The notes under the pieces: model-generated
Database searches by the model: none
The model's input: the letters and a program-made list of their open reading frames with translations, nothing else
Told to the model about the DNA's origin: nothing
Assembly: GCA_036377655.1 (NCBI GenBank)
Contig: DASUXZ010000098.1
Location: 1 to 37,534 of the forward strand
Source: Gemmatimonadales bacterium
Lineage (GTDB): Bacteria > Gemmatimonadota > Gemmatimonadetes > Gemmatimonadales > GWC2-71-9
DNA: 37,534 bases
Reading direction: 5' to 3'
Made by a program: the position numbers and the translations under genes
In this document: piece after piece, positions 3,752 to 20,760 of the stretch
Layout of the letters: each line of letters opens with the position of its first letter
Position numbering within the stretch: the stretch's first letter is position 1

Positions 3752-5281
3752 ATGGGCAGCTCGCTCGCCTACAACGTCAAGCGGCCGGACGGGAGTTCGC
3801 CTTCCGATACGGAGCGGGATCCGCTCTCGATCCCGGGGGAGGTGAAGGCCAGTATCCGGATCCTCGTCGTGGACGACGAGCGGACCCTCCGGGAGAGCTG
3901 CGCGAGCGTCCTCCAGATGGACGGCTTCAACGTCACGGTGATGGGGCGGGGCGAGGAGGCGCTCGAGACGGTCCGGCGCCGCAAGTTCGACATCATCCTC
4001 GTCGACCTCTACATGTCCCAGGTCTCGGGGCTCGAGATCCTTCGCGCGGCGCTCGACGCCTACCGCGACACGATCGTCGTGGTGATGACGGGGAACCCGA
4101 GCGTCACGAGCAGCATCGAGGCGCTCAGGGCCGGCGCCTGGGACTATCTCCCGAAGCCGTTCTCCGCCACACACCTGCAGGTGCTCGTCGGCCGCGCGTC
4201 GCATGCGGTCATGGTGGGGCGGGAGGCGCAGGACCTCCGCCTTCAGCTCATGAAGCAGCATGGGCACAGCGACAAGATCGCGCTCATCGGGATGTCGCCG
4301 GCATTCCGCAAGGCGGTCGAGCTGGCCCGGAAGGTCGCGGCGACGGACGCGTCGGTCTTCATCAGCGGCGAGAGCGGGACGGGCAAGGAGGTCATCGCCC
4401 AGTTCATCCACCAGAACAGCCGCCGTGCGAGCCGGGCGCTCGTGCCGATCAACTGCGCGGCCCTGCCGGAGGGGCTGCTCGAGAGCGAGCTCTTCGGCCA
4501 CCGGAAGGGTGCGTTCACGGGCGCCGACCGGGACAAGCCCGGCCTCCTCGAGACCGCGAACGGCGGGACGCTCTTCCTCGACGAGCTCACCGAGATGTCG
4601 ATGCCGCTCCAGGCCAAGCTCCTCCGCGTCATCCAGGACGGCGTCGTCCGGCGCGTGGGCAGCGAGACCCAGGACGCGGTCGTGGACGTGCGGTTCATCT
4701 CCGCCACCAACCGGGATCCGCAGGAGGCCGTCGACCAGGGGGCGCTCCGCGGCGACCTCTTCTACCGCCTCCGCGTCGTGCCGATCAAGCTTCCGCCGCT
4801 CCGGAAGCGGCTCGAGGACATCCCGCTCCTCGCCAATCATTTCCTGACGTATTACTGGCAGCGCCATCGCCAGATGGGCGACCGGCTTCCCAAGCTGAGC
4901 GAGGAGAGCATCGCCTACCTGCGCTCGCGCCCCTGGCGCGGCAACGTCCGCGAGCTGCAGAACGCCATCGAGCACGTGGCCGTGCTCGCGGAGCCGGACC
5001 AGGTCATCCAGCCGGATCACATCCCGATCTACGACGACGGGCAGCCCGAGTGGCCGGCCGATGCGCCCGTGTCGTCGCCGGCGGTGATGGACGAGGCGTA
5101 CCATGCGGCCAAGGATCGCGTCATCGCCCAGTTCGAGCGCGAGTACCTGTCGCGGCTGGTCGGCCGCGCCGGCGGCAACATGTCGAAGGCCGCGCGGCTC
5201 GCGAGCATCGACCGGACGACGCTCTACCGCCTGATGGACAAGCACGCCTTCCAGCGCAACGACGTGCTCGAGGACGGCTGA
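3752..5281 (+). CDS. Sigma54-dependent response regulator (NtrC family enhancer-binding protein)
   Basis: I chose the internal ATG at 3752 with AAGGAG at 3740-3745; the track ORF starts at 3536. The receiver is canonical: ILVVDDE, ILVDLYM, VVVMTGN, DYLPKPF. The AAA+ sigma54-interaction domain carries GESGTGKE, ESELFGHRKGAFTGA (GAFTGA loop), TLFLDE, RVIQDG and RFISATN. The C-terminal Fis-type HTH reads GGNMSKAARLASIDRTTLYRLM. Confidence 0.9.
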   Translation: MGSSLAYNVKRPDGSSPSDTERDPLSIPGEVKASIRILVVDDERTLRESCASVLQMDGFNVTVMGRGEEALETVRRRKFDIILVDLYMSQVSGLEILRAALDAYRDTIVVVMTGNPSVTSSIEALRAGAWDYLPKPFSATHLQVLVGRASHAVMVGREAQDLRLQLMKQHGHSDKIALIGMSPAFRKAVELARKVAATDASVFISGESGTGKEVIAQFIHQNSRRASRALVPINCAALPEGLLESELFGHRKGAFTGADRDKPGLLETANGGTLFLDELTEMSMPLQAKLLRVIQDGVVRRVGSETQDAVVDVRFISATNRDPQEAVDQGALRGDLFYRLRVVPIKLPPLRKRLEDIPLLANHFLTYYWQRHRQMGDRLPKLSEESIAYLRSRPWRGNVRELQNAIEHVAVLAEPDQVIQPDHIPIYDDGQPEWPADAPVSSPAVMDEAYHAAKDRVIAQFEREYLSRLVGRAGGNMSKAARLASIDRTTLYRLMDKHAFQRNDVLEDG

Positions 5282-5301: not shown

Positions 5302-6462
5302 GTGAGCGGAACGGCGGGCAGCGAGCGCCGGCGGCCGGGGCCCCAGGGCGCCGCGCCGCCGGCGCACGTCTGGGACCCCGCCCCGGCGCCGGCCGGGCCA
5401 CTCGCGCCTGCCCTCTGGGGCGCGCTGCAACGTGCGGTGGAGCAGGCCCAGCACCAGTGGGACAAGGTGGTCGAGCACGCCGTCACGCCGGAGGAAGCCG
5501 CGACGAACCTCGCCGCCCTCGCCAACGTCCTTCGCGCGTGCGCGGCCGGCGGCGACGCCGACCTCGAGTCGCTGCCGCGGACCCAGCTCGCCCGGCGGCT
5601 CGTCTCGGTGGTGCGCACCGGGTTCGTCGAGCAGGCCGCCGCGCTCGTACCGGCGCCGGACGGGGCCGGGCTGCTCGCCGTATTCGCCGCGTTCGAGCGC
5701 GTGGCGCGGCATCTCGAGCCCGACTGGGCGCAGCACCTCGCCGACCGCCTGACCGGCCCCGACGGGCTCGAGCTCGTGGTCGAAGTGGCGCACGACCTCC
5801 GCTCGCCGCTCACGTCCATCCTCTTCCTCGCCGAAACGCTGCAGCGCGGCCGGAGCGGCCCGGTGACGGAGGTGCAGGAGCGGCAGCTCGGGCTCGTCTA
5901 CAGCGCCGCGTTCGGGCTGAGCGCCATGGCGAGCGACGTGATCGAGCTCGCGCGCGGCGGCGACCGCCTCGTCGACCTCGACCCGATTCCGTTCTCCGTC
6001 CGCGACATCCTCGAATCGGTGCGCGACATCGTGCTGCCGATCGCGGAAGAGAAGGGCCTCACCGTCCGCCTCGAGTACCCGAAGGGCGACTTCCGCATCG
6101 GCCACCCCGTGGCACTGAGCCGCGTGCTGCTCAACCTCACCACGAACGCGCTCAAGTTCACGAACGAGGGGCACGTCGAGCTCGTGGGTCGCGAGGCGGC
6201 CCCGGGCAGGGTCGAGTTCAGCGTTCGCGATACCGGGCGCGGCATCCCGCCGCAGAACATGGCCACGCTCTACGAGCCCTTCCGGCGCCGCCAGCGCGAA
6301 GGCGAGTACGCCTTCTCGGGCACCGGCCTCGGCCTCTCGATCTGCCGGAAGCTCGTCGAGGCGATGGGCTCGCGCCTCGAGGTCGAGACCGAGGCGGGGA
6401 AGGGAACGCGGTTCCATTTCATCCTCGACCTCCCCTCCGCCGGCCAGTCGGGCGGCCTCTGA
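5302..6462 (+). CDS. Soluble sensor histidine kinase (HisKA + HATPase_c, no TM segments seen)
   Basis: H-box EVAHDLRSPLTSILFLAE, N-box LLNLTTNALKFT, G1 VRDTGRGIP and G2 GTGLGLSICRKLV. The start is uncertain: GTG 5302 is the first start after the NtrC stop at 5281, and CTG 5284 is possible. The track ORF start at 5050 overlaps the preceding gene. The roughly 170-aa N-terminal region has no motif I recognise. Confidence 0.8.
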   Translation: MSGTAGSERRRPGPQGAAPPAHVWDPAPAPAGPLAPALWGALQRAVEQAQHQWDKVVEHAVTPEEAATNLAALANVLRACAAGGDADLESLPRTQLARRLVSVVRTGFVEQAAALVPAPDGAGLLAVFAAFERVARHLEPDWAQHLADRLTGPDGLELVVEVAHDLRSPLTSILFLAETLQRGRSGPVTEVQERQLGLVYSAAFGLSAMASDVIELARGGDRLVDLDPIPFSVRDILESVRDIVLPIAEEKGLTVRLEYPKGDFRIGHPVALSRVLLNLTTNALKFTNEGHVELVGREAAPGRVEFSVRDTGRGIPPQNMATLYEPFRRRQREGEYAFSGTGLGLSICRKLVEAMGSRLEVETEAGKGTRFHFILDLPSAGQSGGL

Positions 6463-6722
6463 CCCTACCAGCAGCCCGCTGCCGGACATACCTTTAGCCC
6501 GCTCTCCGTGGTTCGACGGAGGCGCCGCAGGTCGCCGCCCATGATCGCGGCGGGGGCGGTCGGTGCGCCGGGAACGGCCGCGCCGGCCAGCCACCCGCTT
6601 CGAGTGGGACGGCGGATGCGGCCGCAATCAACCCGCCGGCACGCCGGCGCTCGACGGTCTCCTCGCCCTGGGCGGGGCAGGCGCGCGGGCGCACGGCGCC
6701 GCCGGCCGCACCCGAGTCCTTC

Positions 6723-8396
6723 GTGACCTACCCGCATCTGCGCCCCGGCCGCGCGGCCGAATTGTCCCTGCACGCCCCGAACGCCGCTCTCCTCATCGAC
6801 TTCGACAACGTGACGCTGGGGATCCGCTCGGATCTCACCAAGGAGCTCCGCACGCTCCTCAACAGCGACATCATCAAGGGGAAAGTGGCCGTTCAGCGCG
6901 CCTATGCCGACTGGCGGCGCTACCCGCAGTACATCGTGCCCCTCTCCGAATCGTCGATCGACCTCATCTTCGCGCCGGCCTTCGGCACGAGCAAGAAGAA
7001 CGCGACCGACATCCGCCTCGCGATCGATGCGATCGAGCTCGTCTTCACGCGGCCCGAGATCGGGACGTTCATCATCATGTCGGGGGACAGCGACTTCTCG
7101 ACGATGGTGATCAAGCTCAAGGAGTACGGGAAGTACGTGATCGGCGTCGGCATCCGCGAGTCGGCGAGCGACCTGCTGATCCAGAACTGCGACGAGTACT
7201 ACTCCTACAGCGACCTCGCCGGGCTCTCCCGCGAGGGAGAGACGCCCTCGATCCAGCGCGATCCATGGGAGCTCGTCGGCGAAGCCATCGCGCAGATGGC
7301 GCGGAACGGCGACGTCATGCGCTCCGACCGCCTCAAGCAGGTGATGCAGCAGATCGATTCCAACTTCGACGAGCGGAACGCAGGCTTCAGCCGCTTCAGC
7401 AAGTTCGTGGTCGAGGCGGGACAGAAGGGACTCCTCCAGGTCACCAAGCTCGAAAACGGCCAGTACGAGGTCGCGCCGCCGGCGGCGCGCGGCGGCCGTG
7501 CGGAGGCGGCCCGCCCGGCCGAGCCGGCGGGGCGCGGACGGGAGGAAAGCCGGAGCCGCGAGGAAGGCCGGAGCCGCGAGGAAGGCCGGAGTCGCGAGGA
7601 GGGCCGCACCCGGGACGAGGGACGTGGCCGGGGCCGGGGCCGCGGGCGCGGCCGGGGACGCGAGCGGGAGCGGGAGGAGCAGCCGGCGGCGCAGTCTGCC
7701 GCCCCGGCCGCGCGCCGCACCGACGGCACGCTCTCGCTCGCGCGCGCGTTCCAGCTCCTGACCGATGCGCTCGCGGAGCTCGGCGGTCCCGTATCGGCGG
7801 AACAGCTCCGCGGCCGGATGGCGGCGCTGCACGGGCGCGAGGACCCGCTGCTCGAGACGAGCCGGTTCGCACGGCTCCTCCGGCAGGCCAACGACGCCGA
7901 AGTCGCCGACGTGCGGAAGGTGGGAGACGACGACTACGAGGTTGCGCTGCATCGCCGGCCCGGAATGCCCGCCGCCCCGAAGCCGCCCGCCACGCCTGCG
8001 GCGGAGGCATCGGGCCCCAACGGCGCCGCGCCGGCCGCGCCTGCCGCGCCGACCGAGCAATCCGGCTCGATCTTCCGCCCAGGCCTCCGGTTCCGCCGCG
8101 GTTCGCGCGCTCCCATGCGGACGGCCGAGATCCCGCTCGTCGGCGTGGTGAGCATCGAGCCGCCGGCACCGGCGGCGCCCGAGGCACCGGCCGCCGAGGC
8201 CGCCCGCGAAGCGCCGGCCGAGAAGGCGGCGGGATCCGGCAAGTCGAAATCCGCGCGCGCCCCGCGAAAGTCCGCAAAGCGCGCCAAGGCAGCCGCGCCG
8301 GCTGCCGCCCCGGACGAAGCGCCCGCCGCGGAGGCGCCCGCCGAGGCACGACCGGCCAGAAAGCGCGCGAAGCCACGCGCGCGAAAGTCGGAGTGA
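6723..8396 (+). CDS. NYN (LabA-like PIN nuclease) domain protein with two OST-HTH/LOTUS domains, an Arg-rich repeat linker and a Lys/Ala/Pro-rich tail
   Basis: GTG start at 6723. NYN motifs are ALLIDFDNV, AYADW, KKNATDIRLAIDAIELV and FIIMSGDSDFSTMVIKLKEYGKYVIGVG. LOTUS-like 1 reads AIAQMARNGDVMRSDRLKQVMQQIDSNFDERNAGFSRFSKFVVEAGQKGLLQV. LOTUS-like 2 reads LARAFQLLTDALAELGGPVSAEQLRGRMAALHG...SRFARLLRQANDAEVADV. The linker is EESRSREEGRSREEGRSREEGRTRDEGRGRGRGRGRGRGREREREE. The tail is KSKSARAPRKSAKRAKAAAPAAAP...RKRAKPRARKSE. Confidence 0.8.
   Translation: MTYPHLRPGRAAELSLHAPNAALLIDFDNVTLGIRSDLTKELRTLLNSDIIKGKVAVQRAYADWRRYPQYIVPLSESSIDLIFAPAFGTSKKNATDIRLAIDAIELVFTRPEIGTFIIMSGDSDFSTMVIKLKEYGKYVIGVGIRESASDLLIQNCDEYYSYSDLAGLSREGETPSIQRDPWELVGEAIAQMARNGDVMRSDRLKQVMQQIDSNFDERNAGFSRFSKFVVEAGQKGLLQVTKLENGQYEVAPPAARGGRAEAARPAEPAGRGREESRSREEGRSREEGRSREEGRTRDEGRGRGRGRGRGRGREREREEQPAAQSAAPAARRTDGTLSLARAFQLLTDALAELGGPVSAEQLRGRMAALHGREDPLLETSRFARLLRQANDAEVADVRKVGDDDYEVALHRRPGMPAAPKPPATPAAEASGPNGAAPAAPAAPTEQSGSIFRPGLRFRRGSRAPMRTAEIPLVGVVSIEPPAPAAPEAPAAEAAREAPAEKAAGSGKSKSARAPRKSAKRAKAAAPAAAPDEAPAAEAPAEARPARKRAKPRARKSE
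7542..7679 (+). repeat. In-frame 18-nt tandem repeat degenerating into (RG)n and (RE)n codon repeats
   Basis: The units are gaggaaagccggagccgc / gaggaaggccggagccgc / gaggaaggccggagtcgc / gaggagggccgcacccgg / gacgagggacgtggccgg. They are followed by ggccggggccgcgggcgcggccggggacgc and gagcgggagcgggaggag. The phase matches the 6723 reading frame. Confidence 0.85.
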
Positions 8397-11260: not shown

Positions 11261-11929
11261 CTACCAGCTCTCCCGCGCGCTCCCGAGGCTGAACCGCACG
11301 CCACCGGTCACCGTGTGCACGGCGCCGCTGATGAGGCGGCCCTCGCCGAGGACCGTGCCGCCCTCCTGCGTGAAGCGATATCCGGGGACGGTCTGCAGCT
11401 GGTAGTGCCCGAACACGCTCACGCCGCCGACCCGGAACTGGAGGCCGCCCATGAACGCGCCGAATCCGCTGCTCCCGATATCCTGCGCCACGGCCGATGA
11501 CCCGCCGTCGAGCGGATCCGGCGAGACGACATGGATGATGCCGCCGCCGACGCCGAAGTAGGGCTGCATGTGGCCGCGCACCGGAAAGACGAGAAGGCCG
11601 AAGGTGTAGCGACGGATGTCGCTGAACGCGACGTTCTGCGGGCCACCGCCGGCGGTGTAGTCGATGTAGCTCGAGGTCTGCCCGTCGTCGAAGGCCTCTT
11701 CGACGGCGAGGTAGAGCGCGCCCTTCTTGGCCTTGATGAGCGCATGACCGCCCGCCATCGGAATCGCGCCGCGGCTCTGCGTCGGCGTCCGGAAGACCAT
11801 CATGCCGGCCTGGCCGCCGAGGTACCAGCGGTAGTCGTCACTCTGCACCACCTCCTGCGCGCGAACATCCTGGGCGCCCAGCGCCAGGGCGAACGCGATC
11901 ACCGGGATGCTGCGGCTGAGCAGGCTCAT
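11261..11929 (-). CDS. Outer-membrane beta-barrel protein (small OmpA-N/OmpW-like porin family)
   Basis: Signal peptide MSLLSRSIPVIAFALALGAQDVRAQE. The sequence shows an alternating hydrophobic/Gly-rich strand pattern (YLGGQAGMMVF, GFGAFMGGLQFRVG, VSVFGHYQLQTV) and an aromatic C-terminus ...SARESW. Confidence 0.7.
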   Translation of the reverse strand: MSLLSRSIPVIAFALALGAQDVRAQEVVQSDDYRWYLGGQAGMMVFRTPTQSRGAIPMAGGHALIKAKKGALYLAVEEAFDDGQTSSYIDYTAGGGPQNVAFSDIRRYTFGLLVFPVRGHMQPYFGVGGGIIHVVSPDPLDGGSSAVAQDIGSSGFGAFMGGLQFRVGGVSVFGHYQLQTVPGYRFTQEGGTVLGEGRLISGAVHTVTGGVRFSLGSARESW

Positions 11930-12130
11930 CGGACCATCTCCTGAATGCGGCTGGGGGCCCGGCCGCGCAGCGGATTGCGCGGGGCCCGTGGAAAAACGCG
12001 AGGCGCCCGTCGGGGCACCGCCGCGGGAGGCGCCGGGATCCGATGGCGCTTCCTAAGGCATTGTTTTTCAACGAGATAGCTGGCTGGTCGATGCCGGAGC
12101 ACTGTCCGGTGGCCGGCCGTCGCGGAAGGG

Positions 12131-12161
12131 AAAGTGCAAAGAGGGGGCCACCCCGGCCCCC
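12131..12161 (-). terminator. Possible terminator after kbl
   Basis: The minus strand after the TGA reads GGGGGCC-ggggt-GGCCCCC followed by TCTTTGCACTTT. The stem is 7 bp of GC and the T-run is interrupted. Confidence 0.4.
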
Positions 12162-12166
12162 CCGTG

Positions 12167-13384
12167 TCAGATGAGGCCGAGGCGGGTTCCGACCTTGCGG
12201 AAGGCGGCGAGCGCCTCGTCCAGGTCCTCGCGGGAATGCGCGGCCGAAATCTGGCAGCGCACGCGCGCCTGTCCCTGGGGGACGACCGGGAATCCGAAGC
12301 CCGTCACGAAGACCCCTTCGTCGAGCAGCAGCTGGCTCATGCGGATCGCGTCGGACGTCTCGCCGAGAATCACCGGGATGATCGGGGTCTCGCCCGGGAG
12401 GGGCCGGAACCCGAGGGCGAGGAGGCCGTCGCGGAAATACGACGCGTTCTCGGCGAGGACACGAACGCGCCCCGGATGCGCCTCGAGGAACTCGATGCTC
12501 GCGAGCGCGCTCGCCGCCACCGTCGGCGGAAGGGCGTTCGAGAAGAGCTGCGGCCGGGCGCGCTGCGTGAGGTAATCGCAGACCGCTTCGGACGCGGCGA
12601 CGAATCCGCCCGCCGCGCCGCCGAGCGCCTTGCCGAGGGTGGAGGTGATGATGTCGATCTCGCCGACCAGGCCGAAATGCTCCGCCGTGCCCCGCCCGTG
12701 GGCGCCGAGGACGCCGGTGGCGTGCGAGTCGTCCACCACGAGGACGGCATCGTGGCGACGGCAGATCTCGAGGAGCTCCGGGAGCTTCGCGATCGCACCT
12801 TCCATCGAGAACACGCCGTCGGTGATGACCATCCGCGTCCGCCGGTCTCGCGCGGCGGTGAGGAGCTCGACGAGATGGTCGAGGTCGGCATGGCGGAAGA
12901 CCGCGGTCTGGCACTTCGTGATCGCCTTGGCGAGCCGGATGCCGTCGATGATCGAGGCGTGATTCAACTGGTCGCTGATCACGATGTCCTCCTCGCCGAG
13001 CAGGGTTCCCGGCGTCGCCTCGTTGGCATTCCAGCAGCTCACGAAGCTGAGGCTCGCCTCGGTCCCGACGAGGCGCGCGCAGGCCGCCTCGAGGTCGCGA
13101 TGCACGTCGAACGTCCCGCAGATGAATCGCACCGACGCGGTCCCCGCGCCGTAACGCGCGAGCGCCTCCCGGCCCGCCGCGACGACCGCCGGCTCGTTGC
13201 TGAGGCCGAGGTAGTTGTTCGATGAGAGGATGATGACCTCACCGCGGCCTTCCATCCTGACGCGCGCCGACTGCGGTCCCTGCAGGTAGTTCAGGTGCTT
13301 GTAGACGCCTTCGGCGCGGAAGCGCTCGAGCTCGGCGGCGATCCGCCGGTCGAGCGAGCTCGGATGGTGCGACGTCGGGGCCAT
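12167..13384 (-). CDS. kbl: 2-amino-3-ketobutyrate CoA ligase (glycine C-acetyltransferase)
   Basis: 405 aa. Motifs: ILSSNNYLGLSNEP, FICGTFDVHRDLE, VVDDSHATGVLGAHGRGTAEHFG, and IITSTLGKALGG with the PLP lysine. AAGGGA lies 9 nt upstream of the ATG at 13384. Confidence 0.9.
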   Translation of the reverse strand: MAPTSHHPSSLDRRIAAELERFRAEGVYKHLNYLQGPQSARVRMEGRGEVIILSSNNYLGLSNEPAVVAAGREALARYGAGTASVRFICGTFDVHRDLEAACARLVGTEASLSFVSCWNANEATPGTLLGEEDIVISDQLNHASIIDGIRLAKAITKCQTAVFRHADLDHLVELLTAARDRRTRMVITDGVFSMEGAIAKLPELLEICRRHDAVLVVDDSHATGVLGAHGRGTAEHFGLVGEIDIITSTLGKALGGAAGGFVAASEAVCDYLTQRARPQLFSNALPPTVAASALASIEFLEAHPGRVRVLAENASYFRDGLLALGFRPLPGETPIIPVILGETSDAIRMSQLLLDEGVFVTGFGFPVVPQGQARVRCQISAAHSREDLDEALAAFRKVGTRLGLI

Positions 13385-13403
13385 GGCGTGTGATCCCTTG
13401 CGA

Positions 13404-15071
13404 TCAGGTAGGCGCCGCGCGCAGCAGGTCGATCACCGAGATGCCGTCCGCGGCGTTGATGGTGTGCGTGCCGATGAGGCCCGGGCCCCATGCAGGCAGG
13501 ATCTCGTGCACGACGCGTTCCGCATACCGCTCCGGCGAGAGCTCGAGCACTTCGTGGACCGTCATTCCGCCGCCGTAGACCGGCACGCCGATCTGCGCGG
13601 GGCGGTAGAGGCGGCCGCGGTGCCGGAAGAACTGGCCTCCCATCCGGGCGCGGCGCACGTCCGCCACCACGGGGTTCTCGGGATGCGGCGTGAACGGGCC
13701 GAACGGGCCGTCGGAGACGAGGATATGCAGCTCCTCGGTCCGGTCGATCCCGGGCTCGCCGATGCTCGTGAAGAGGTACCAGCGGCCTGCGTGCTCGAGG
13801 AGCGTCGCATCCACCGCGTCGATCCCGTCGACGAGGACGCGGTCGAGCGTCCACCCGTGCGGAAAGCGGTCCGCGCGGTAGAGCTCGATGCGGCGCCGCT
13901 TGTTCGTCTCCGGGATCATGTACCACGAATCGCCGATCCGGAACACCTGCGGATAGGAGAGATGGCAGTCGGTCTCGAGCGCCGTCGCCGGCGCGCCGAC
14001 CGGCCCGGAGGGTCCCATTTCCCAGACCGCGATCGTCCCTCGATTGCCCGCGTAGATGAGCTCCTCGAAGAACATCCACCATCGCTCGCCGTCCCGCACG
14101 ATGAACGGGTCGGCCCAGAAGCGGTCGGCAGGGGGCACGATCTCGCGGTAGCGGTGCATGACGCCGTGCGGCGTGTCGCCCGTGACCCCCCGCACGGCAT
14201 GCCACCCGAGCGACCATTGCAGGCGCCGCCCGCGATTGCGGAGCCGCTGCGCGACCCACCGGCGCGCGAGCCGCGTCCCGAGGCGGAGCACCGTCGCGTT
14301 GTCGGGAATGCGATAGAGGGGCTGCTGGTACGCGTCCCACAGCTCGACGTCGCCCGCCGTCGCCTGGCGCGGGTCCCGCCCGTCGTGGAGCCGTTCGAGC
14401 GAGCGCACGAGCATGCGCGAGGAGCGGCGATACATGTGCCGGATGTTCTGCGCGAAGGAAAACCGGCGCGTCGCGCCGACCGAGCGTGCGAGCGCCGTGC
14501 CCCCGTCGAGGTCCTCCGTGAGCCGCTGGAGGGTGACCCCGGTGACGGGCGAGTCCTCGAGCACCTCCCAGACGCCGGGCGGGCCGCCGCGGTTCACCCG
14601 GTTGTCGCCGTGATGAAACGACCAGACCCCGTCCCGCGCGGCACCGAGGACCGGACCGCGGAGGATCCGGAAGCCGCCGCGCACGAGGACGTCGAGGTTC
14701 GCCTCCCGGATGCGCGCGACGTCCGGATCGGTGATCCGGTCGCTGAAGCGCGTGGTCTCCGGCCGAACCCGGAGCACCGGCGCGGACGGCGCGAGGGTCG
14801 AGATCGGCACCGCGGGATCCGGGGCGGGGAGCCGGGCGCGCTTCGCATCGAGCCGCTCCGCGAGCGCAAAGCCGAGCCGCGCGCGATTGTGCCAGAGCCG
14901 CCCGAGGCGGGACCGCTTCACCTCGGGCGACGGATCCGCGTCGCGCTCCACCACGAGCACGATTTCCGCGAGGCCCCGCGAGACCACTTCGGTGAGTGCC
15001 GCTCCGAGCCAGGCCGGCACCTCGGGCCCGTCGAGCAGGAGGCCGAGGCGGAGCGGCGCCCTCCGGCTCAA
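13404..15071 (-). CDS. Two-domain protein: formyltransferase-fold N-terminal domain fused to a GH43-like / GINT-like beta-propeller-type C-terminal domain
   Basis: The N-terminal half resembles Formyl_trans_N: DVLVRGGFRILRGPVL, GVWSFHHGD, SPVTGVTLQRLTEDLDGG. The C-terminal half carries FWADPFIVRDGERWWMFFEE, SYPQVFRIGDSWYMIPE and DATLLEHAGRWYLFTS. I trimmed the track ORF (13404..15974) because its first ~300 codons shadow tdh. The proposed TTG start at 15071 overlaps the tdh TGA (TTGA), but the start is uncertain. Confidence 0.6.
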   Translation of the reverse strand: MSRRAPLRLGLLLDGPEVPAWLGAALTEVVSRGLAEIVLVVERDADPSPEVKRSRLGRLWHNRARLGFALAERLDAKRARLPAPDPAVPISTLAPSAPVLRVRPETTRFSDRITDPDVARIREANLDVLVRGGFRILRGPVLGAARDGVWSFHHGDNRVNRGGPPGVWEVLEDSPVTGVTLQRLTEDLDGGTALARSVGATRRFSFAQNIRHMYRRSSRMLVRSLERLHDGRDPRQATAGDVELWDAYQQPLYRIPDNATVLRLGTRLARRWVAQRLRNRGRRLQWSLGWHAVRGVTGDTPHGVMHRYREIVPPADRFWADPFIVRDGERWWMFFEELIYAGNRGTIAVWEMGPSGPVGAPATALETDCHLSYPQVFRIGDSWYMIPETNKRRRIELYRADRFPHGWTLDRVLVDGIDAVDATLLEHAGRWYLFTSIGEPGIDRTEELHILVSDGPFGPFTPHPENPVVADVRRARMGGQFFRHRGRLYRPAQIGVPVYGGGMTVHEVLELSPERYAERVVHEILPAWGPGLIGTHTINAADGISVIDLLRAAPT

Positions 15072-16111
15072 CCGCCGATCTCCAGGATGACCTTGCCCGC
15101 CTCGCCCGCCTTGATCACGTCGATGGCATCGGCGATCCGGTCGAGCGGAAAGCGGTGGGTGATGACGGGGCGGGGGTCGAGCTGACCGGAGCGGAGGAGG
15201 CGGATCATGGCGTCCCAGGTGCCGTACATCCGCCGCCCGGTGACACCGTAGAGCGTGAGTCCCTTGAAGATGATGTCGCGGGCAAAATCCACCTCGGTGG
15301 TGCGGCTCGGCGTGCCGAGGAGGTTCACGCGGCCGCCGAGGCGGGCCGCGGCGAAGGCCTGCGCGTGCCCCGCGGGATGGCCGCTCATCTCGCAGACGAG
15401 GTCGGCGCCGTCGCCGTCGGTGAGCTCGTGCATCCGCGCCGGGACGTCGTCCGTGGCGGGATCGAGCGTGAGGTGCGCGCCCATCTTCGCCGCGAGCGCG
15501 CGCCGCGTCGGGTTGAGGTCGCTCGCGACGACGAGCGCCGCGCCGGCGGCCCGCGCGACGCCGACGGCGAAGCACCCGATCGGTCCGCAGCCGACGACGA
15601 GCACGCGGCGTCCCGGGCTCGATCCCCCTTCGAGCACCGTGTGCACGGCATTCCCCATCGGGTCCATCACCGCGCCGATCTCGGCCGGAATGCCGCCGAG
15701 GCGCATGACGTTGGCGGCCGGCATCACGATGTACTCGGCGAACGCGCCGTCGCGGTCCACGCCGATGATCTGCGTCCGCCGGCAGAGATGGCCGTCGCCG
15801 ATCCGGCACTGGAGGCAGTGCCCGCAGATGACGTGACCTTCCGCGGTGACGAGATCGCCGACCTCGAGCAGTCCCGATGCCGCCGCCTCGCGGCCGAGCT
15901 CCGCTACCTCGCCCGAGAACTCGTGGCCGATCACGAGCGGCGGGTTGAGGCGGCCGCTCGCCCACGCGTCCCATTCCCAGATGTGCAGGTCGGTGCCGCA
16001 GACACCGGCGTAATGGACCCGGATCAGCACGTCGTTCGGCCCGCAGGCGGGCTTCGGCACGTCGCGCAGCACCATCCCCGGACCCCGTGACTCCTTCACC
16101 AGTGCCCGCAT
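15068..16111 (-). CDS. tdh: L-threonine 3-dehydrogenase (zinc MDR family)
   Basis: Starting at the internal ATG 16111: MRALVKESRGPGMVLRDVPKP, VHYAGVCGTDLHIWEWD, VIGHEFSGEV, CGHCLQCRIGDGHLC, VVGCGPIG. The start lies 1 nt after the upstream stop. Confidence 0.9.
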   Translation of the reverse strand: MRALVKESRGPGMVLRDVPKPACGPNDVLIRVHYAGVCGTDLHIWEWDAWASGRLNPPLVIGHEFSGEVAELGREAAASGLLEVGDLVTAEGHVICGHCLQCRIGDGHLCRRTQIIGVDRDGAFAEYIVMPAANVMRLGGIPAEIGAVMDPMGNAVHTVLEGGSSPGRRVLVVGCGPIGCFAVGVARAAGAALVVASDLNPTRRALAAKMGAHLTLDPATDDVPARMHELTDGDGADLVCEMSGHPAGHAQAFAAARLGGRVNLLGTPSRTTEVDFARDIIFKGLTLYGVTGRRMYGTWDAMIRLLRSGQLDPRPVITHRFPLDRIADAIDVIKAGEAGKVILEIGG

Positions 16112-16112
16112 G

Positions 16113-17720
16113 TCACCTCGCCTCGAGTGATTCCGCCTCCCGGACCGCGCGGGAATATATGCCGCGCAACTCGCCGGTTGTAGCACTCGACCCGCGGGCG
16201 TAGACCACGATCGTCCCGGCCTGGAAGCGGAGCGAGAACGGCGCGGCGAGCGCCGCTCCCTTCTCGCCGAGCGCGGCGAAGGGCGGGAGGCACGCGAGGC
16301 AGGCGCCGCCCGTGCCGAGCGTGTCCTCGGTGACGACGACCGACGGCGGATGCTCGCCGAGCTCGGCCTCGAGCAGGCGGAGATAGCGGTCGCGAAGTGC
16401 CGGGGCGAGCCGCGCGCTCACCGGCGTCTCGATCTGGAAGCGGCCGGCGGCCGGCCGTCCGGCAAGGAACGCGACGGCCGGATGGTTCCATGCGAGCACC
16501 GGCCCCGGTGGAAGTGAATCCGTGATGAACGCCGCCGCTGCGCGTTCGTCGGCCGCGGTCGCGTGCCAGGAGGCGTAGCGCGCGTAATGCGATTCCGCGG
16601 AGATCCTGCCTGCCACGAAGCGCGCGGCCCGGACCGCCTCGCCGAGCGGAAAGCGGCCGAAGGTCGCGAGCGCGAGCAGGAGGAAGGTCCCGGCGAGTGC
16701 CCCCCGCGAAGGGGCGCCGGGGATCGCGGTCCCGTCCCGGTCCGGCATCGCGAGGAAGGACGCCGCGAGGATCGCGAGCACCGGCGTGAGGATGTGCAGC
16801 CGGTACGGGTAGTAGGGCCGCTGCAGCAGGACGAGTGGCAGGGCGACGCCGACCCACGCGCCGAGCAGCCACCCGGCCCTCCGGTCGATGCGCGCGACGA
16901 GCGGGATGGCGGCGACGGCGATCGGGAACGCCACGAGCAGCGCCGGATCCGCGAGTGCGCCGTACGACAGCGACGTGGCGACCGCGCCGAGAAGCCCCGC
17001 GCTGTTCTTCGCCGAATTGAACCGGATGAAGGCATCCACGTACGCGGAGAACGAGCCGGTCGCTGCGGCCACGCCGAGCCAGAGCGCGATCGGCGCGAGG
17101 AATCCTGCGGCGACCGCGAGCGCCTGGCGCGTGCGGGCCTCCGGGCGCGGATCGCAGGCGATCGCCGCGGCGGGGACGACGAGGAATGCGGCGTAGTGCG
17201 GCTTGAGGAGCGCCGTCACCGCGACGCCGGCGCCGAGGATGGCGAACCGGAGCGGCCCTGGCCGGGGATCGCCGAGGAGGAACGGGGCCGCCGCGAGCAG
17301 GAGGATCCAGGCGACCCACCCATCCGGCTGGGCCGTGTTCATGAAGCCGGTATTGGCGTAGGCGAGGACCCAGACGCCTGCGGCACCGATGCCGGCCGCG
17401 CGGCCGGCGAAACGGGAGGCGACGCGAAACACGACGGCGGCCGCGGCGAGGAGCAGCACCAGGTCGAAGAGGCGGATGCCCCACGCGCCGCGGCCGGTCA
17501 CGAGCTGCACGAGCGCGGAGGGATAGAACGACAGGGGACCCTTCACGTCGAACGCATCGCGGTACGGCATCCCGCCGCGCACGATCACGTCCCCGACCCA
17601 GGCGAAGGCGCCGTGGTCCCACCCGAACGGCCAGGTGAGCGACGCCACGGCCCAGAGCGCCGCGATGGCGGCGGCGCCTGCGATCGAAAGGCTGATGAGC
17701 GCGCGGAGTGCGCGGTGCAC
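16113..17720 (-). CDS. Polytopic GT-C-fold membrane glycosyltransferase (family 39/87-like, ArnT/PMT-like)
   Basis: 535 aa with a GTG start at 17720, 1 nt after the upstream stop. About a dozen hydrophobic segments. The first loop reads WDHGAFAWVGDVIVRGGMPYRDAFDVKGP, which resembles the D...PYRDF loop of the DUF2029/GT87 and PMT_2 families. The soluble C-terminal domain is about 130 aa. The family assignment is tentative. Confidence 0.55.
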   Translation of the reverse strand: MHRALRALISLSIAGAAAIAALWAVASLTWPFGWDHGAFAWVGDVIVRGGMPYRDAFDVKGPLSFYPSALVQLVTGRGAWGIRLFDLVLLLAAAAVVFRVASRFAGRAAGIGAAGVWVLAYANTGFMNTAQPDGWVAWILLLAAAPFLLGDPRPGPLRFAILGAGVAVTALLKPHYAAFLVVPAAAIACDPRPEARTRQALAVAAGFLAPIALWLGVAAATGSFSAYVDAFIRFNSAKNSAGLLGAVATSLSYGALADPALLVAFPIAVAAIPLVARIDRRAGWLLGAWVGVALPLVLLQRPYYPYRLHILTPVLAILAASFLAMPDRDGTAIPGAPSRGALAGTFLLLALATFGRFPLGEAVRAARFVAGRISAESHYARYASWHATAADERAAAAFITDSLPPGPVLAWNHPAVAFLAGRPAAGRFQIETPVSARLAPALRDRYLRLLEAELGEHPPSVVVTEDTLGTGGACLACLPPFAALGEKGAALAAPFSLRFQAGTIVVYARGSSATTGELRGIYSRAVREAESLEAR

Positions 17721-17721
17721 T

Positions 17722-20670
17722 TCAGGCCGGCACGGGCCGGGTCGCGGGCTCCACCCGCACCGCGCTCACCTTGAACTCGGCGATCTTGGCGTACGGGTCG
17801 AGGCGGGGATTCGTGAGGAGGTTCGCGGCCGCCTCGCGGAAATGGAAGGGGATGAAGATCTGGCCGGGCGCCTGGCGGTCCGAGATGCGCGCGCCGATGA
17901 GGATCGACGCGCGGCGGCTCGTCACCCGCATCGTGTCGCCGTCCCCGATGCCGAGGCGGATGGCGTCCGCGGGACTGATCTCCGCGACCGGCACCGGCTC
18001 GCGGGAGTCGAGGCCCTCGGAGCGGCGCGTCATCGTGCCGGTGTGCCAGTGGTACATCTGCCGGCCGGTGTTCATGATGAACGGGAACTCGTCGTCCGGC
18101 AGCTCGGCGGGCGGGAGGTACTCGACGGCGACGAACTTCGCCTTCCCGTCCGGCGTCGGGAAGCGCTCGGCGAAGAGATACGGCGTGCCGCGATGCCCCC
18201 GCTCGGGCACGGGATACTGCAGGCCCGCGCCGCGGAGGGCGTCGTAGGTGACGCCCCGCCACGACGGCGTGACCGTCGTGATCTCCGCCATCACCTCTTC
18301 CGCATCGCGCCACGGCGTCGGGAGGCCCAGGCGGTTGGAGAGGTCGATGATGATGTCGAGGTCGCGCCGGGCGTCGCCCGGCAGGGGAACCGCCGGCTCG
18401 GTGAGCTGGATGCGGCGCTCCGTATTCACGTACGTCCCGCGCTTCTCGGCGAACGACGAGCCCGGAAGCACCACGTCCGCCCATCGTGCGGTCTCGGTGA
18501 GGAAGAGGTCCTGGACCGCCAGGAACTCGAGCCCGCGCACCCACGCCTCGGCGTGCGAGATGTCGGGGTCGGAGATCACCGGGTTCTCGCCCATGATGTA
18601 GAGGCCCCGGACCCCGCTCTCCGCGGACGTCATCTCCGTGACCATGAGGCCCGGCTTGAGCGAGAGCCGCTCCTCCGGCACGCCCCAGGCGCGCGCATAC
18701 TCCGCGCGGTTGGCGGGATCGGCGACCGGCCGGTAGTCGGTGTAGGCGAAGGGAATGGCGCCGACGTCGCTCGCGCCCTGCACGTTGTTCTGGCCGCGGA
18801 TCGGCATCATCTGTGCGCCCCACCGCCCGATCATGCCGCACGCGAACAGCAGGTTGAGGAGGCTCGCGACGATGTCGGTGCCCGTCGCGTGCTGGGTGAG
18901 GCCCATCGCCCAGAGGGTCGAGGTGCGCGGGCCGCGCGCGTACATCTCCGCCGCGGCGCGGATCGTCACCGCCGGGATGCCGGTGATGCGGGAGCCGACC
19001 TCGAGCGTGTACGGCTCGACCGCCTTCTTCACCACCTCGAAGCCGTGCATCCGCTTCCCGATGAACGTCCGGTCCTCCAGCCCTTCCGCGATGATGTGGT
19101 GCAGCATCGCGTTGAAGAGGGCGACGTCGGTGCCGGGCAGCATCTGCAGGTGGATGTCGGCGAGCTCCGCGAGCTCGAGCCGCCGCGGGTCCGCGACGAT
19201 GAGGCGGGCCCCCCGGGCCACCGCGCGCTTGATGAGCGCGCCGAACACGGGGTGGGACTCGGTGGTGTTGGCCCCGGCGATGAAGATCACGTCGCACGCT
19301 TCCTCGATCTCGCGCATCGAGCCGCTCGCGGCGGCCGTGCTGAGCGCGCGGTTCATCGCCGACACCGAGGTGGAGTGGCAGAGGCGGGTGCAGTGATCGA
19401 GGTTGTTCGTGTTGATGGCGCCGCGCACCATCCGCATGAAGGCGTAGTTGTCCTCGTTGGTGCACTTGGCGGACGAGAGCGCCGCGATCGCGTCCGGGCC
19501 GTGGCGTCCGCGGATCCGGAGGAGCTCCTGCGCCGCGAGGCTCAGGGCCTCGTCCCACGTGGCTTCACGGAACGGCTCGTACCACTCCGCCGGCGTGGCG
19601 ACCCGGTCGCGCACGTCGTCGCTCCCGCGGCGGCCACGGCCGGTGAGCGGCGGCTTGCCCACCTGCCGCTCGGGCGGGCGGGGTTTCTTCTTGCGGCCGA
19701 TCTCCTCGATGAGGTGCCACGGCCCTTCGCGGTGCCGCGGCCATTCGCCGGTCCAGCGCCAGGTGCCGTTCGCGTCCCGTTCCCATCCGCGGCGGATGAG
19801 GGGCTTCGTGAGGCGGTCGCGGTGCTGGGGGAAGTCGTAGCCGAATCGTCCCTTCACGCAGGTGGAGCCCTGGTTCGGCGTGTTCTCCTCGATCCACGGC
19901 GAGGTGACGCGCATGATCCTGCCGTCGCGCGCGTGCAGGTCCACCTGGCAGCCCACGGCACAGTAGGGACAGACCGAGCGGACGACGCGCTCCGGGCTCG
20001 CGAGCTTGTCCGCCCCGAACCGCTCGCGCGGGATGAACTCGAAGATCGCGTTGGTGGGGCAGACGCGAACGCACTCGCCGCACCAGGTGCAGCCGGCGTG
20101 ATCGGGATCGCCGTCGCCACCGACGATGATCTGCGCATGGCTCCCGCGCTCGGCGACGTCGAGCACGCCCACCTGCTGGATGTCCTCGCAGGCCCGCACG
20201 CAGCGGGTGCAGAGGATGCAGAGGCTCATGTCGTGCCGGATCATCGTGTCGCCGGGGCGCTCGTCCCCGGTGCGGAGCGGGAGCGTGCGAGAGACGACGG
20301 GGCGGGGCATGACCCCGTACCGCACGACGTGCCGCTCGAACTCGTTGCGTGGCGCGGCGCGCCCGCCGTTGGCGAGGTGCTCCCCCGGGTACCGCTCGAG
20401 CAGCATGGACAGCACGCCCTGCCGGTTGGCGACCGCGGCCGGCGACTCGGTCTCCACCGTCATGCCGTCCACGGCCGCGGTGGCGCACGCCGGCACGAGC
20501 TTCCCCTGGCCTTCCACCGACACGAGGCAGAGGCGGCAGTTCCCGACGTTCGGCAGCTTCGGATACCAGCAGAGCGTGGGGACGTCCACGCCGGCCGTGC
20601 GGGCGACGTCGAGGATCGTCGCGCCCGGTTCGAAGGAATGAGTACGGCCGTCGAGCACGAGGGTCGGCAT
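17722..20670 (-). CDS. Formate dehydrogenase alpha-subunit-like molybdopterin oxidoreductase (FdhA/FdsA/YjgC type, Cys variant)
   Basis: I chose the ATG at 20670 (MPTLVLDGR). 2Fe-2S motif: CWYPKLPNVGNCRLCLV...LVPACAT. 4Fe-4S motifs: CILCTRCVRAC and CTWCGECVRVCP. Mo-bisPGD N-terminal cluster: CPYCAVGCQV. The active-site stretch RLCHSTSV has Cys where selenoproteins have Sec. A molydopterin_dinuc-binding C-terminus is present. Confidence 0.85.
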   Translation of the reverse strand: MPTLVLDGRTHSFEPGATILDVARTAGVDVPTLCWYPKLPNVGNCRLCLVSVEGQGKLVPACATAAVDGMTVETESPAAVANRQGVLSMLLERYPGEHLANGGRAAPRNEFERHVVRYGVMPRPVVSRTLPLRTGDERPGDTMIRHDMSLCILCTRCVRACEDIQQVGVLDVAERGSHAQIIVGGDGDPDHAGCTWCGECVRVCPTNAIFEFIPRERFGADKLASPERVVRSVCPYCAVGCQVDLHARDGRIMRVTSPWIEENTPNQGSTCVKGRFGYDFPQHRDRLTKPLIRRGWERDANGTWRWTGEWPRHREGPWHLIEEIGRKKKPRPPERQVGKPPLTGRGRRGSDDVRDRVATPAEWYEPFREATWDEALSLAAQELLRIRGRHGPDAIAALSSAKCTNEDNYAFMRMVRGAINTNNLDHCTRLCHSTSVSAMNRALSTAAASGSMREIEEACDVIFIAGANTTESHPVFGALIKRAVARGARLIVADPRRLELAELADIHLQMLPGTDVALFNAMLHHIIAEGLEDRTFIGKRMHGFEVVKKAVEPYTLEVGSRITGIPAVTIRAAAEMYARGPRTSTLWAMGLTQHATGTDIVASLLNLLFACGMIGRWGAQMMPIRGQNNVQGASDVGAIPFAYTDYRPVADPANRAEYARAWGVPEERLSLKPGLMVTEMTSAESGVRGLYIMGENPVISDPDISHAEAWVRGLEFLAVQDLFLTETARWADVVLPGSSFAEKRGTYVNTERRIQLTEPAVPLPGDARRDLDIIIDLSNRLGLPTPWRDAEEVMAEITTVTPSWRGVTYDALRGAGLQYPVPERGHRGTPYLFAERFPTPDGKAKFVAVEYLPPAELPDDEFPFIMNTGRQMYHWHTGTMTRRSEGLDSREPVPVAEISPADAIRLGIGDGDTMRVTSRRASILIGARISDRQAPGQIFIPFHFREAAANLLTNPRLDPYAKIAEFKVSAVRVEPATRPVPA

Positions 20671-20760
20671 GCGCAGTCCGCGTGGAAGGGGCTTCCACTC
20701 GATAGTAGGCGGCGGCGATGGAGGGAGCAAGAGCGCTGCGGCGCCCCGCGCAACCTGCGG

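Follow-up and report, generated by a model that had tools for sequence, protein, structure and literature searches.

The gene between tdh and kbl

We analyzed a window of 37,534 nucleotides (nt), a contig (G000:C98) with a GC content of ~71% from a Gemmatimonadales metagenome-assembled genome (MAG) that is 74% complete. On the minus strand of this window, a single open reading frame (ORF) of 555 codons, hereafter referred to as X (positions 13404-15071), separates tdh, which encodes an L-threonine 3-dehydrogenase of 347 amino acids (15068-16111), from kbl, which encodes a glycine C-acetyltransferase (2-amino-3-ketobutyrate CoA ligase) of 405 amino acids (12167-13384). The TTG start codon of X (15071-15069) overlaps the TGA stop codon of tdh (15070-15068) as TTGA, and this overlap (15068-15071) is a putative translational coupling site. 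X ends with a TGA codon at 13406-13404, and the ATG of kbl begins at 13384, 19 nt further on; the spacer between them (13385-13403) carries a Shine-Dalgarno-like AAGGGA site at 13394-13399. An earlier note on this DNA, made from the sequence alone, had described tdh and kbl as split by a gene of about 555 codons, with the start/stop overlap, the 19-nt gap, and the AAGGGA site, and all of these coordinates hold.

X is a genuine gene: it has full-length homologs at E = 0 in congeneric genomes (80-82% identity over 99% of the length), and a homology search returned 775 matches among the scored candidates. The N-terminal domain of the encoded protein (residues ~1-235; 14367-15071) has a formyltransferase fold, as found by Foldseek and with a profile of the X family. 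In an AlphaFold2 model of X built on 26 homologs (pLDDT 92.2, pTM 0.91), this half matched the PDB structures of Fmt, the ArnA N-terminal domain, and PurN with E values of 5e-9 to 3e-7 and a Foldseek probability of 1.0, and the family profile matched Fmt at 9e-6 and ArnA at 3e-5. No match to X was obtained with Pfam PF00551, and the NCBIfam models for ArnA, Fmt, and formyltransferases gave weak scores (17-18 bits against cut-offs of 201-777, E ~1e-3).

The profile alignment of X with ArnA places Ser151 (14619-14621) at the position of N102, His153 (14613-14615) at that of H104, and Asp189 (14505-14507) at that of D140. The loop following the catalytic His reads H-H-G-D-N-R in X, with GDNR standing in place of the H-x-S-L-L-P (SLLP) loop of formyltransferases, whereas the R-G and TGVT...LD.G motifs are common to both. 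Ser151, His153, HHGDN, and Asp189 are invariant in 26 aligned family members, together with ~30 other N-domain positions and the family motif WS.HHGDN..NRGGP. Because of this invariance, the N-domain appears to be under selection and not a relic. The conserved His/Asp pair and the new invariant HHGDN suggest that the domain is catalytic and that its reaction is related to acyl or formyl transfer.

The C-terminal domain (residues ~282-555; 13407-14228) is a five-bladed beta-propeller of the Pfam family GINT1_N (PF24793), which reached 131.3 bits across residues 317-521 (cut-off 27) and 132.7 bits in a scan of the whole genome. Its nearest folds in the PDB were the five-bladed propellers of GH117, GH62, GH130, and GH68. 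An invariant Asp321 (14109-14111) lies in the motif RFWADP. The set of invariant Asp, Glu, His, Arg, Gln, and Tyr residues in the propeller suggests that it binds a sugar or an anion (phosphate or carboxylate), or that it carries out a second catalytic step. The formyltransferase fold of the N-terminal half, with Ser replacing the catalytic Asn and with His and Asp kept, and the GINT1_N/GH43-like propeller of the C-terminal half had both been proposed in the earlier note, and the structural searches, the ArnA alignment, and the PF24793 score bear these proposals out. The motifs it had listed (GFRILRG, SFHHGD, TGVTLQRLTEDLDGG, FWADPF, SYPQVFRIGDSWYMIPE, and WYLFTS) are all found in the X translation.

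The propeller fold raises the question of a glycoside hydrolase or phosphorylase, of the GH43, GH117, or GH130-like type, that trims or recycles a sugar polymer and in which the N-domain would be a degenerate structural or regulatory module. The invariant Asp of the ADP motif occupies the position typical of the clan, and of the two modules, the propeller shows the stronger conservation and also exists alone. Membership in GH43 was rejected, since PF04616 reached 21.7 bits against a cut-off of 32.2, and profile matches to GH43 and GH117 structures were merely local (E 3e-4 to 0.01). A blade-4 Glu of the GH43 type was not evident in alignments inspected by eye, although Asp321 and Asp421 are both present and invariant. 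The ~30 invariant N-domain residues, including His153, Asp189, and HHGDN, speak against a degenerate domain. Neither a signal peptide nor a membrane helix was found in X, and the protein is therefore predicted to be cytoplasmic; its gene lies in biosynthetic and not in degradative loci (see below). We consider the hydrolase reading improbable. Our best guess is that the N-domain performs an acyl- or formyl-type transfer or handles a sugar nucleotide, and that the propeller binds a sugar or phosphate or performs a second catalytic step.

Family-wide context of X

The X family is widespread and occurs in more than 586 species representatives; in a species-representative genome set, 586 loci were confirmed from many phyla, including Gemmatimonadota, Acidobacteriota, Bacteroidota, Pseudomonadota, Planctomycetota, Verrucomicrobiota, and Chloroflexota. 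Cultured carriers include Flagellimonas pelagia, Winogradskyella algicola, Litorivivens lipolytica, and Geomesophilobacter sediminis. On its own, the N-domain matched 2,506 representative clusters, the best of which are nearly all fusions of 550-600 amino acids, and homologs of X are named "hypothetical" or "formyltransferase family" in their source records. Stand-alone propellers of 265-310 amino acids possess the invariant residues of the X propeller (D321, E336, H-L-S-x-P, D421, N-P, R476, Q493, Y-G, H536, and D548). Larger fusions also occur: P0280 (954 amino acids) joins the formyltransferase-like domain, GINT1_N, and a GT4 domain, and P0289 (802 amino acids) is X with a PglD_N-like C-terminal extension. 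As gene fusions, these two proteins appear to tie the family to glycosyl or acyl transfer. A literature search for the family that fuses a formyltransferase-like domain to GINT1_N found no characterization. GINT1_N exceeded its cut-off in one of 14 well-known control genomes, that of Bacteroides thetaiotaomicron, a tractable organism in which the propeller could be studied.

The ORFs within 8 kb of X were clustered in 84 loci from many phyla, and recurrent clusters were annotated with Pfam. The genes around X were called with a greedy rule favoring the longest ORF, which may pick antisense frames at high GC, and the counts given here therefore refer to Pfam-confirmed families only. AsnB-like amidotransferases were the most frequent neighbors (23 of 84 loci), followed by UDP-glucose/GDP-mannose dehydrogenases (Ugd; 17), NAD-epimerases (13), heparinase II/III-like proteins (12), two clusters of GT2 glycosyltransferases (11 and 10), beta-helix proteins (10), DUF218 proteins (10), Wzx flippases (9), exosortases (8), and DegT aminotransferases (7). 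Among the genes directly flanking X, GT4 was the top family (12 of 123), followed by AsnB-like, Ugd, Wzx, GT2, and methyltransferase genes. These neighbors are the signature of polysaccharide biosynthesis loci, and the recurrent fusion and adjacency of X to glycosyltransferases suggest a shared substrate or product. In Gemmatimonadaceae (L045, L057, and L070; also L016, L050, L060, and L076), a fused homocysteine S-methyltransferase/MTHFR gene is convergent to X or lies a few kb away. The occurrence of this folate-related fusion near a formyltransferase-like protein may merely reflect a lineage-specific gene order.

Homologs of tdh or kbl (tblastn E <= 1e-10 to the genes of the window) were found near X only in one Gemmatimonadales clade. 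Neither tdh nor kbl lies within 8 kb of X in any of the 75 loci that the species-representative set contains from other lineages, and neither gene was found in the upstream 6 kb of the contig carrying P0037.

The tdh-X-kbl trio and the junction upstream of tdh

Direct neighborhood of tdh and kbl is seen in ~25 genera of this family and order, and X was not found anywhere in these genomes; most of the genomes compared here are MAGs. Where the junction was read in X-less relatives, the two genes overlap (ATGA in G020 and G023, GTGA in G009), and kbl starts at the same tdh-stop-overlapping position that is now used by X. A kbl ortholog was present in all 41 relatives searched. Kbl passes the NCBIfam equivalog model NF005394 (489.9 bits against a cut-off of 460), and Tdh, which carries the Pfam domains ADH_N and ADH_zinc_N, passes NF003808 (422.9 against 380), with a score below the cut-off for TIGR00692 (404 against 458). 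Both are ordinary orthologs, and no accelerated branch was seen for either. The window's tdh is 72-87% identical to that of relatives, in line with kbl, and it is therefore the native gene; a xenologous tdh that arrived with X was rejected on the same grounds. A sphingolipid reading, drawn from the name GINT1 and the presence of an alpha-oxoamine synthase, was also rejected, since the synthase is an orthologous Kbl that passes its equivalog cut-off and serine palmitoyltransferase models score far below theirs (241-330 bits against 500-670, one at 329 against 640). The BioF model gave Kbl 372 bits against a cut-off of 426.

The order tdh-X-kbl (the trio) is present in three congeneric genomes and in L017, L018, and L019, as well as on the contigs carrying P0024, P0031, P0014, P0028, P0035, P0026, P0050, and P0038. 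In these further loci, X is 43-60% identical to the X of the window, and Tdh and Kbl are 72-86% identical. A tree of X grouped 13 sequences with the trio context and 13 whose context was not then available into one clade (SH-aLRT 100) that contained no member with another context. Two of the latter, P0050 and P0038, proved to have the trio, bringing the total to 15 of 15 context-known clade members, with X 43-100% identical to that of the window. The 4-nt overlap between tdh and X is retained in almost all trio loci. It reads ATGA in L017 and L018 and TTGA in G004, and it was found with called genes in L140, L141, L143, L146, L147, and the P0038 contig. The spacers between X and kbl measure 16-23 nt in L014, L017, and L018, akin to the 19 nt of the window.

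A tree of Kbl, based on this single gene, placed the X-bearing genomes in three positions among X-less genera, all within one well-supported clade of 22 sequences. The first is a clade of 10 sequences in which every genome has X, the second comprises P0031 and P0026, whose sister is the X-less G009 (support 100/99), and the third is P0050, whose sister is the X-less G007 (support 98/84). Among members of the trio clade, the tree of X agrees broadly with that of Kbl. The simplest reading of these trees is one old insertion followed by vertical inheritance and several clean losses, with recombination between relatives as a possible alternative route to the same pattern. The earlier note had regarded adjacent tdh and kbl in relatives, with X located elsewhere, as the mark of a recent and functionally unlinked insertion. 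Relatives do have the two genes adjacent, and in G029, from another family of the order, X lies in a GT4/AsnB/GT2 cluster ~200 kb from kbl. However, a recent insertion was rejected, since the trio is conserved across a deep clade. One trio locus, L147 (GCA_041390165.1, JAWKQL010000013.1), comes from a MAG labeled Dehalococcoidia and has the order TMP-TENI, PUA-methyltransferase, tdh-X-kbl, NYN, Epimerase_2, GT4; this MAG is probably mis-binned or mislabeled, since its genes are arranged as in the Gemmatimonadales loci and its Kbl clusters with that of G007.

The trio of the window belongs to a longer chain on the minus strand, which reads, from 5' to 3', an FDH-alpha-like molybdoenzyme gene (17722-20730; Pfam families read on the L143 ortholog), a GT-C membrane glycosyltransferase gene (16113-17720; ArnT/PMT_2-like, 535 amino acids), tdh, X, kbl, and a gene for a 222-amino-acid protein that matches no Pfam family and has an N-terminus resembling a signal peptide (11261-11929). 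The FDH-like gene and the GT-C gene are separated by 1 nt, as are the GT-C gene and tdh. The 222-amino-acid protein trails kbl in nearly all relatives, with or without X, at 24-91% identity. A terminator-like hairpin with a T-run lies downstream of kbl at 12002-12019 and is the sole such site on the minus strand between 11000 and 22000; the count of terminator-like sites is no higher than in shuffled sequence (2 versus 1.9), which makes the position of the hairpin only suggestive. No promoter was found in a sigma-70 scan.

The earlier note had placed a GT-C glycosyltransferase immediately upstream of tdh, and the AlphaFold2 model of this protein (pLDDT 90.7) agrees. Its best PDB folds were ArnT (5EZM and 5F15; E 6e-7, TM score 0.57), followed by STT3, AglB, and PglB, which makes the fold assignment a solid one. 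By sequence, it is 17% identical to ArnT, and single-sequence and profile searches against the PDB returned only noise. Pfam PMT_2 scored 21.4 bits against a gathering score of 26.1 (E 3e-4), and 22 of 25 homologs match this family at E <= 1e-3 (best 8e-11); homologs are named GT39 or ArnT family in source records. The GT-C protein diverges much faster than Kbl (62-65% versus 90% identity within the genus). In L017, the GT-C gene is duplicated in tandem upstream of tdh (3826-5277 and 5412-6857), and the two copies are 36% and 48% identical to the GT-C of the window.

An FDH-alpha-like molybdopterin/Fe-S gene is conserved upstream of tdh-kbl in many Gemmatimonadales genera (the window, L102, L106, L108, L116, L137, L143, L148, L151, and L152), and it ends 67-257 nt before tdh, with nothing between, in G021, G009, G036, and G014. 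It is the ancestral upstream neighbor of tdh. The junction between the two is a hot spot of gene gain across lineages (L137, L138, L148, L149, L150, L141, and L146). Among X-bearing loci, an ArnT-like GT-C gene lies between tdh and the FDH-like gene or another upstream neighbor in the genus of the window, L017 (two copies), L018, P0014, and P0024, whereas a gene for a PTPS_related membrane protein lies upstream of tdh in P0028, GT2 and methyltransferase genes in P0031, and AsnB-like, Wzx, methyltransferase, and GT2 genes in P0026; P0035 and P0050 have no glycan gene there. Among X-less loci, G020 and G022 have an SDR gene, G012 and G007 have genes for unknown proteins (such proteins gained at this junction have 278-296 amino acids), and G021, G009, and G017 have nothing there. 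G023 (L137) has the order FDH-GT-C-tdh-kbl. Overall, 11 of 13 X-bearing loci have a glycan gene upstream of tdh, compared with one of eight X-less loci (Fisher p = 0.002, kinship ignored). These counts suggest that partners of X gather as near to it as the operon allows, with tdh caught between, and do not point to a fixed pair of X and GT-C. A single cassette consisting of GT-C and X was rejected, since each gene occurs without the other, GT-C in G023 and X on the P0035 and P0050 contigs.

An analogy with the ArnA/ArnT (lipid A aminoarabinose) pathway, raised in the earlier note, can be weighed against these data. X would N-formylate or N-acylate an amino-sugar nucleotide, as the ArnA N-domain does, and the ArnT-like GT-C would move the sugar from polyprenyl-phosphate to an acceptor in the envelope, such as lipid A. 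In both the fold and the profile searches, the N-terminal half of X has the ArnA formyltransferase domain among its best matches, ArnT is the best fold match of GT-C, and the two genes co-occur in the subclade of the window. However, Fmt is an equally good match to the N-terminal half, other residues stand in place of the catalytic Asn and the SLLP loop, and the propeller has no counterpart in the Arn pathway. No ArnB-, ArnC-, or ArnD-like gene was found in the chain at 11261-20730, the part of the genome that was searched. In the sister subclade, GT-C gives way to a GT2 that resembles TuaG/EpsD and not ArnC (ArnC model 28 bits against a cut-off of 529), DegT aminotransferases are as infrequent near X as noted above, and GT-C is not a recurrent neighbor in the family as a whole. 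A strict Arn pathway was rejected on account of the X-less GT-C locus in G023 and the GT2 of the sister subclade. An Arn-like module in a broader sense seems to us rather unlikely.

The position of X invites another reading, in which X and the flanking glycosyltransferases use a product of Tdh and Kbl and the place between the two genes has been selected. The candidates are glycine, attached to a sugar as an aminoacyl substituent, one-carbon units from glycine that would serve a formyl transfer as 10-formyl-tetrahydrofolate (formyl-THF), and 2-amino-3-ketobutyrate/aminoacetone. Formylation of a glycyl amine is known from GAR transformylase, and the folate one-carbon pool receives units from glycine cleavage. 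The conservation of the trio with its overlap across a deep clade, the glycan genes found on both sides of tdh in the 11 loci counted above, and the resemblance of the N-domain to folate-dependent formyltransferases are in its favor. On the other hand, tdh and kbl are absent near X in the 75 loci of other lineages and upstream on the P0037 contig, X has repeatedly been lost with tdh-kbl left intact, most relatives have tdh-kbl without X, Tdh and Kbl evolve as ordinary orthologs, and neither the SLLP folate loop nor the catalytic Asn is conserved in X. We regard this use of a Tdh/Kbl product as doubtful. We give as little credence to the related proposal that the position of X is functional, with a glycan-decorating module, made up of X and the varying glycosyltransferases around tdh, tied metabolically or regulatorily to threonine breakdown, for example through glycine or formyl-THF feeding the aminoacyl or formyl decoration of surface sugars by the Ser-His-Asp domain. 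The link to threonine/glycine catabolism or to 2-amino-3-ketobutyrate put forward in the earlier note accordingly finds no support: relatives keep tdh and kbl adjacent, X is absent there or, as in G029, located elsewhere, and its neighbors are polysaccharide genes.

Origin and role of X, and comparison with known systems

We favor, with moderate confidence, the reading that X is an accessory cytoplasmic enzyme of surface-glycan biosynthesis, for a polysaccharide or a glycolipid, that was inserted at the tdh/kbl junction and has been kept there since, without being part of threonine metabolism. In the ancestor of one subclade of this Gemmatimonadales family, X would have inserted exactly at the translationally coupled junction and taken over the start that overlaps the tdh stop (ATGA/TTGA), leaving kbl, 19 nt downstream, to a ribosome-binding site of its own. 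The trio would then have been inherited vertically, with X lost several times and tdh-kbl restored. X is probably co-transcribed with tdh and kbl, using their operon as an expression platform, and it probably acts with the glycosyltransferases and other glycan enzymes gathered across tdh, namely the ArnT-like GT-C in the window and GT2, methyltransferase, AsnB-like, and Wzx proteins in the sister subclade. Tdh and Kbl would retain their ordinary function.

Several observations weigh against this account. The case for co-transcription is drawn from gaps of 1 nt, an overlap of 4 nt, and a chain in which no terminator-like site interrupts the genes, and the glycan role of X from guilt by association and fusions. 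The counts of glycan genes upstream of tdh correspond to only two or three independent events, and G023, which lacks X, has a GT-C gene at this junction, so that a partnership of the two is not obligatory. The long contiguity of the trio, the retained overlap, and glycan genes that bracket tdh instead of adjoining X are not predicted for a pure bystander, and some functional or regulatory tie of X to tdh-kbl is therefore possible. That X was lost repeatedly while tdh-kbl stayed intact speaks against a dependence of either one on the other.

If the favored reading is correct, the locus is a case of operon evolution in which a foreign gene landed on a start/stop overlap, captured the coupling site, persisted while diverging to ~43% identity, and was lost several times. 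X also appears to have drawn partner glycosyltransferase genes to the far side of a housekeeping gene. The locus points to an unstudied family that joins a formyltransferase-like domain to GINT1_N, and an activity assigned to it would fill a gap in many polysaccharide loci. Decoration tied to threonine, if true, would be the first activity for this fusion family. The finding probably changes nothing for threonine metabolism itself.

The E. coli kbl-tdh operon encodes the same two enzymes, which turn threonine into glycine and acetyl-CoA, with kbl preceding tdh, whereas tdh comes first here. In most Gemmatimonadales relatives, tdh and kbl are adjacent and overlapping, as opposed to the pair in the window, which is split by an unrelated gene of 555 codons that holds the coupled start site. 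The N-domain of X has the fold, the aligned catalytic His and Asp, and the R-G and TGVT...LD.G motifs in common with the ArnA N-domain, Fmt, and PurN, and it differs from them in its Ser for the catalytic Asn, its GDNR for SLLP, and the lack of a PF00551 match. In place of a C-terminal OB-like or decarboxylase domain, X carries a propeller. The GT-C of the window has the GT-C fold in common with ArnT (GT83) and PMT_2 proteins, ArnT being its best match (TM score 0.57), and its homologs match PMT_2; in contrast, identity to ArnT is only 17%, its own PMT_2 score stays under the cut-off, and the locus has no further Arn genes.

Going by the name of the Pfam family, the GINT1_N propeller of X is also found at the N-terminus of plant GINT1, where it is joined to a glycosyltransferase domain; X fuses it to a formyltransferase-like domain and not to GT64. 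In the Acinetobacter baumannii outer-core locus, Orf1 (formerly Ghy) is described as a protein of 294 amino acids and unknown function whose best match outside the genus is a "putative formyl transferase." From this literature description, and not from an alignment, the propeller of X is probably common to Orf1 as well. Stand-alone bacterial propellers of 265-310 amino acids have their invariant residues in common with X, which represents the fused form.

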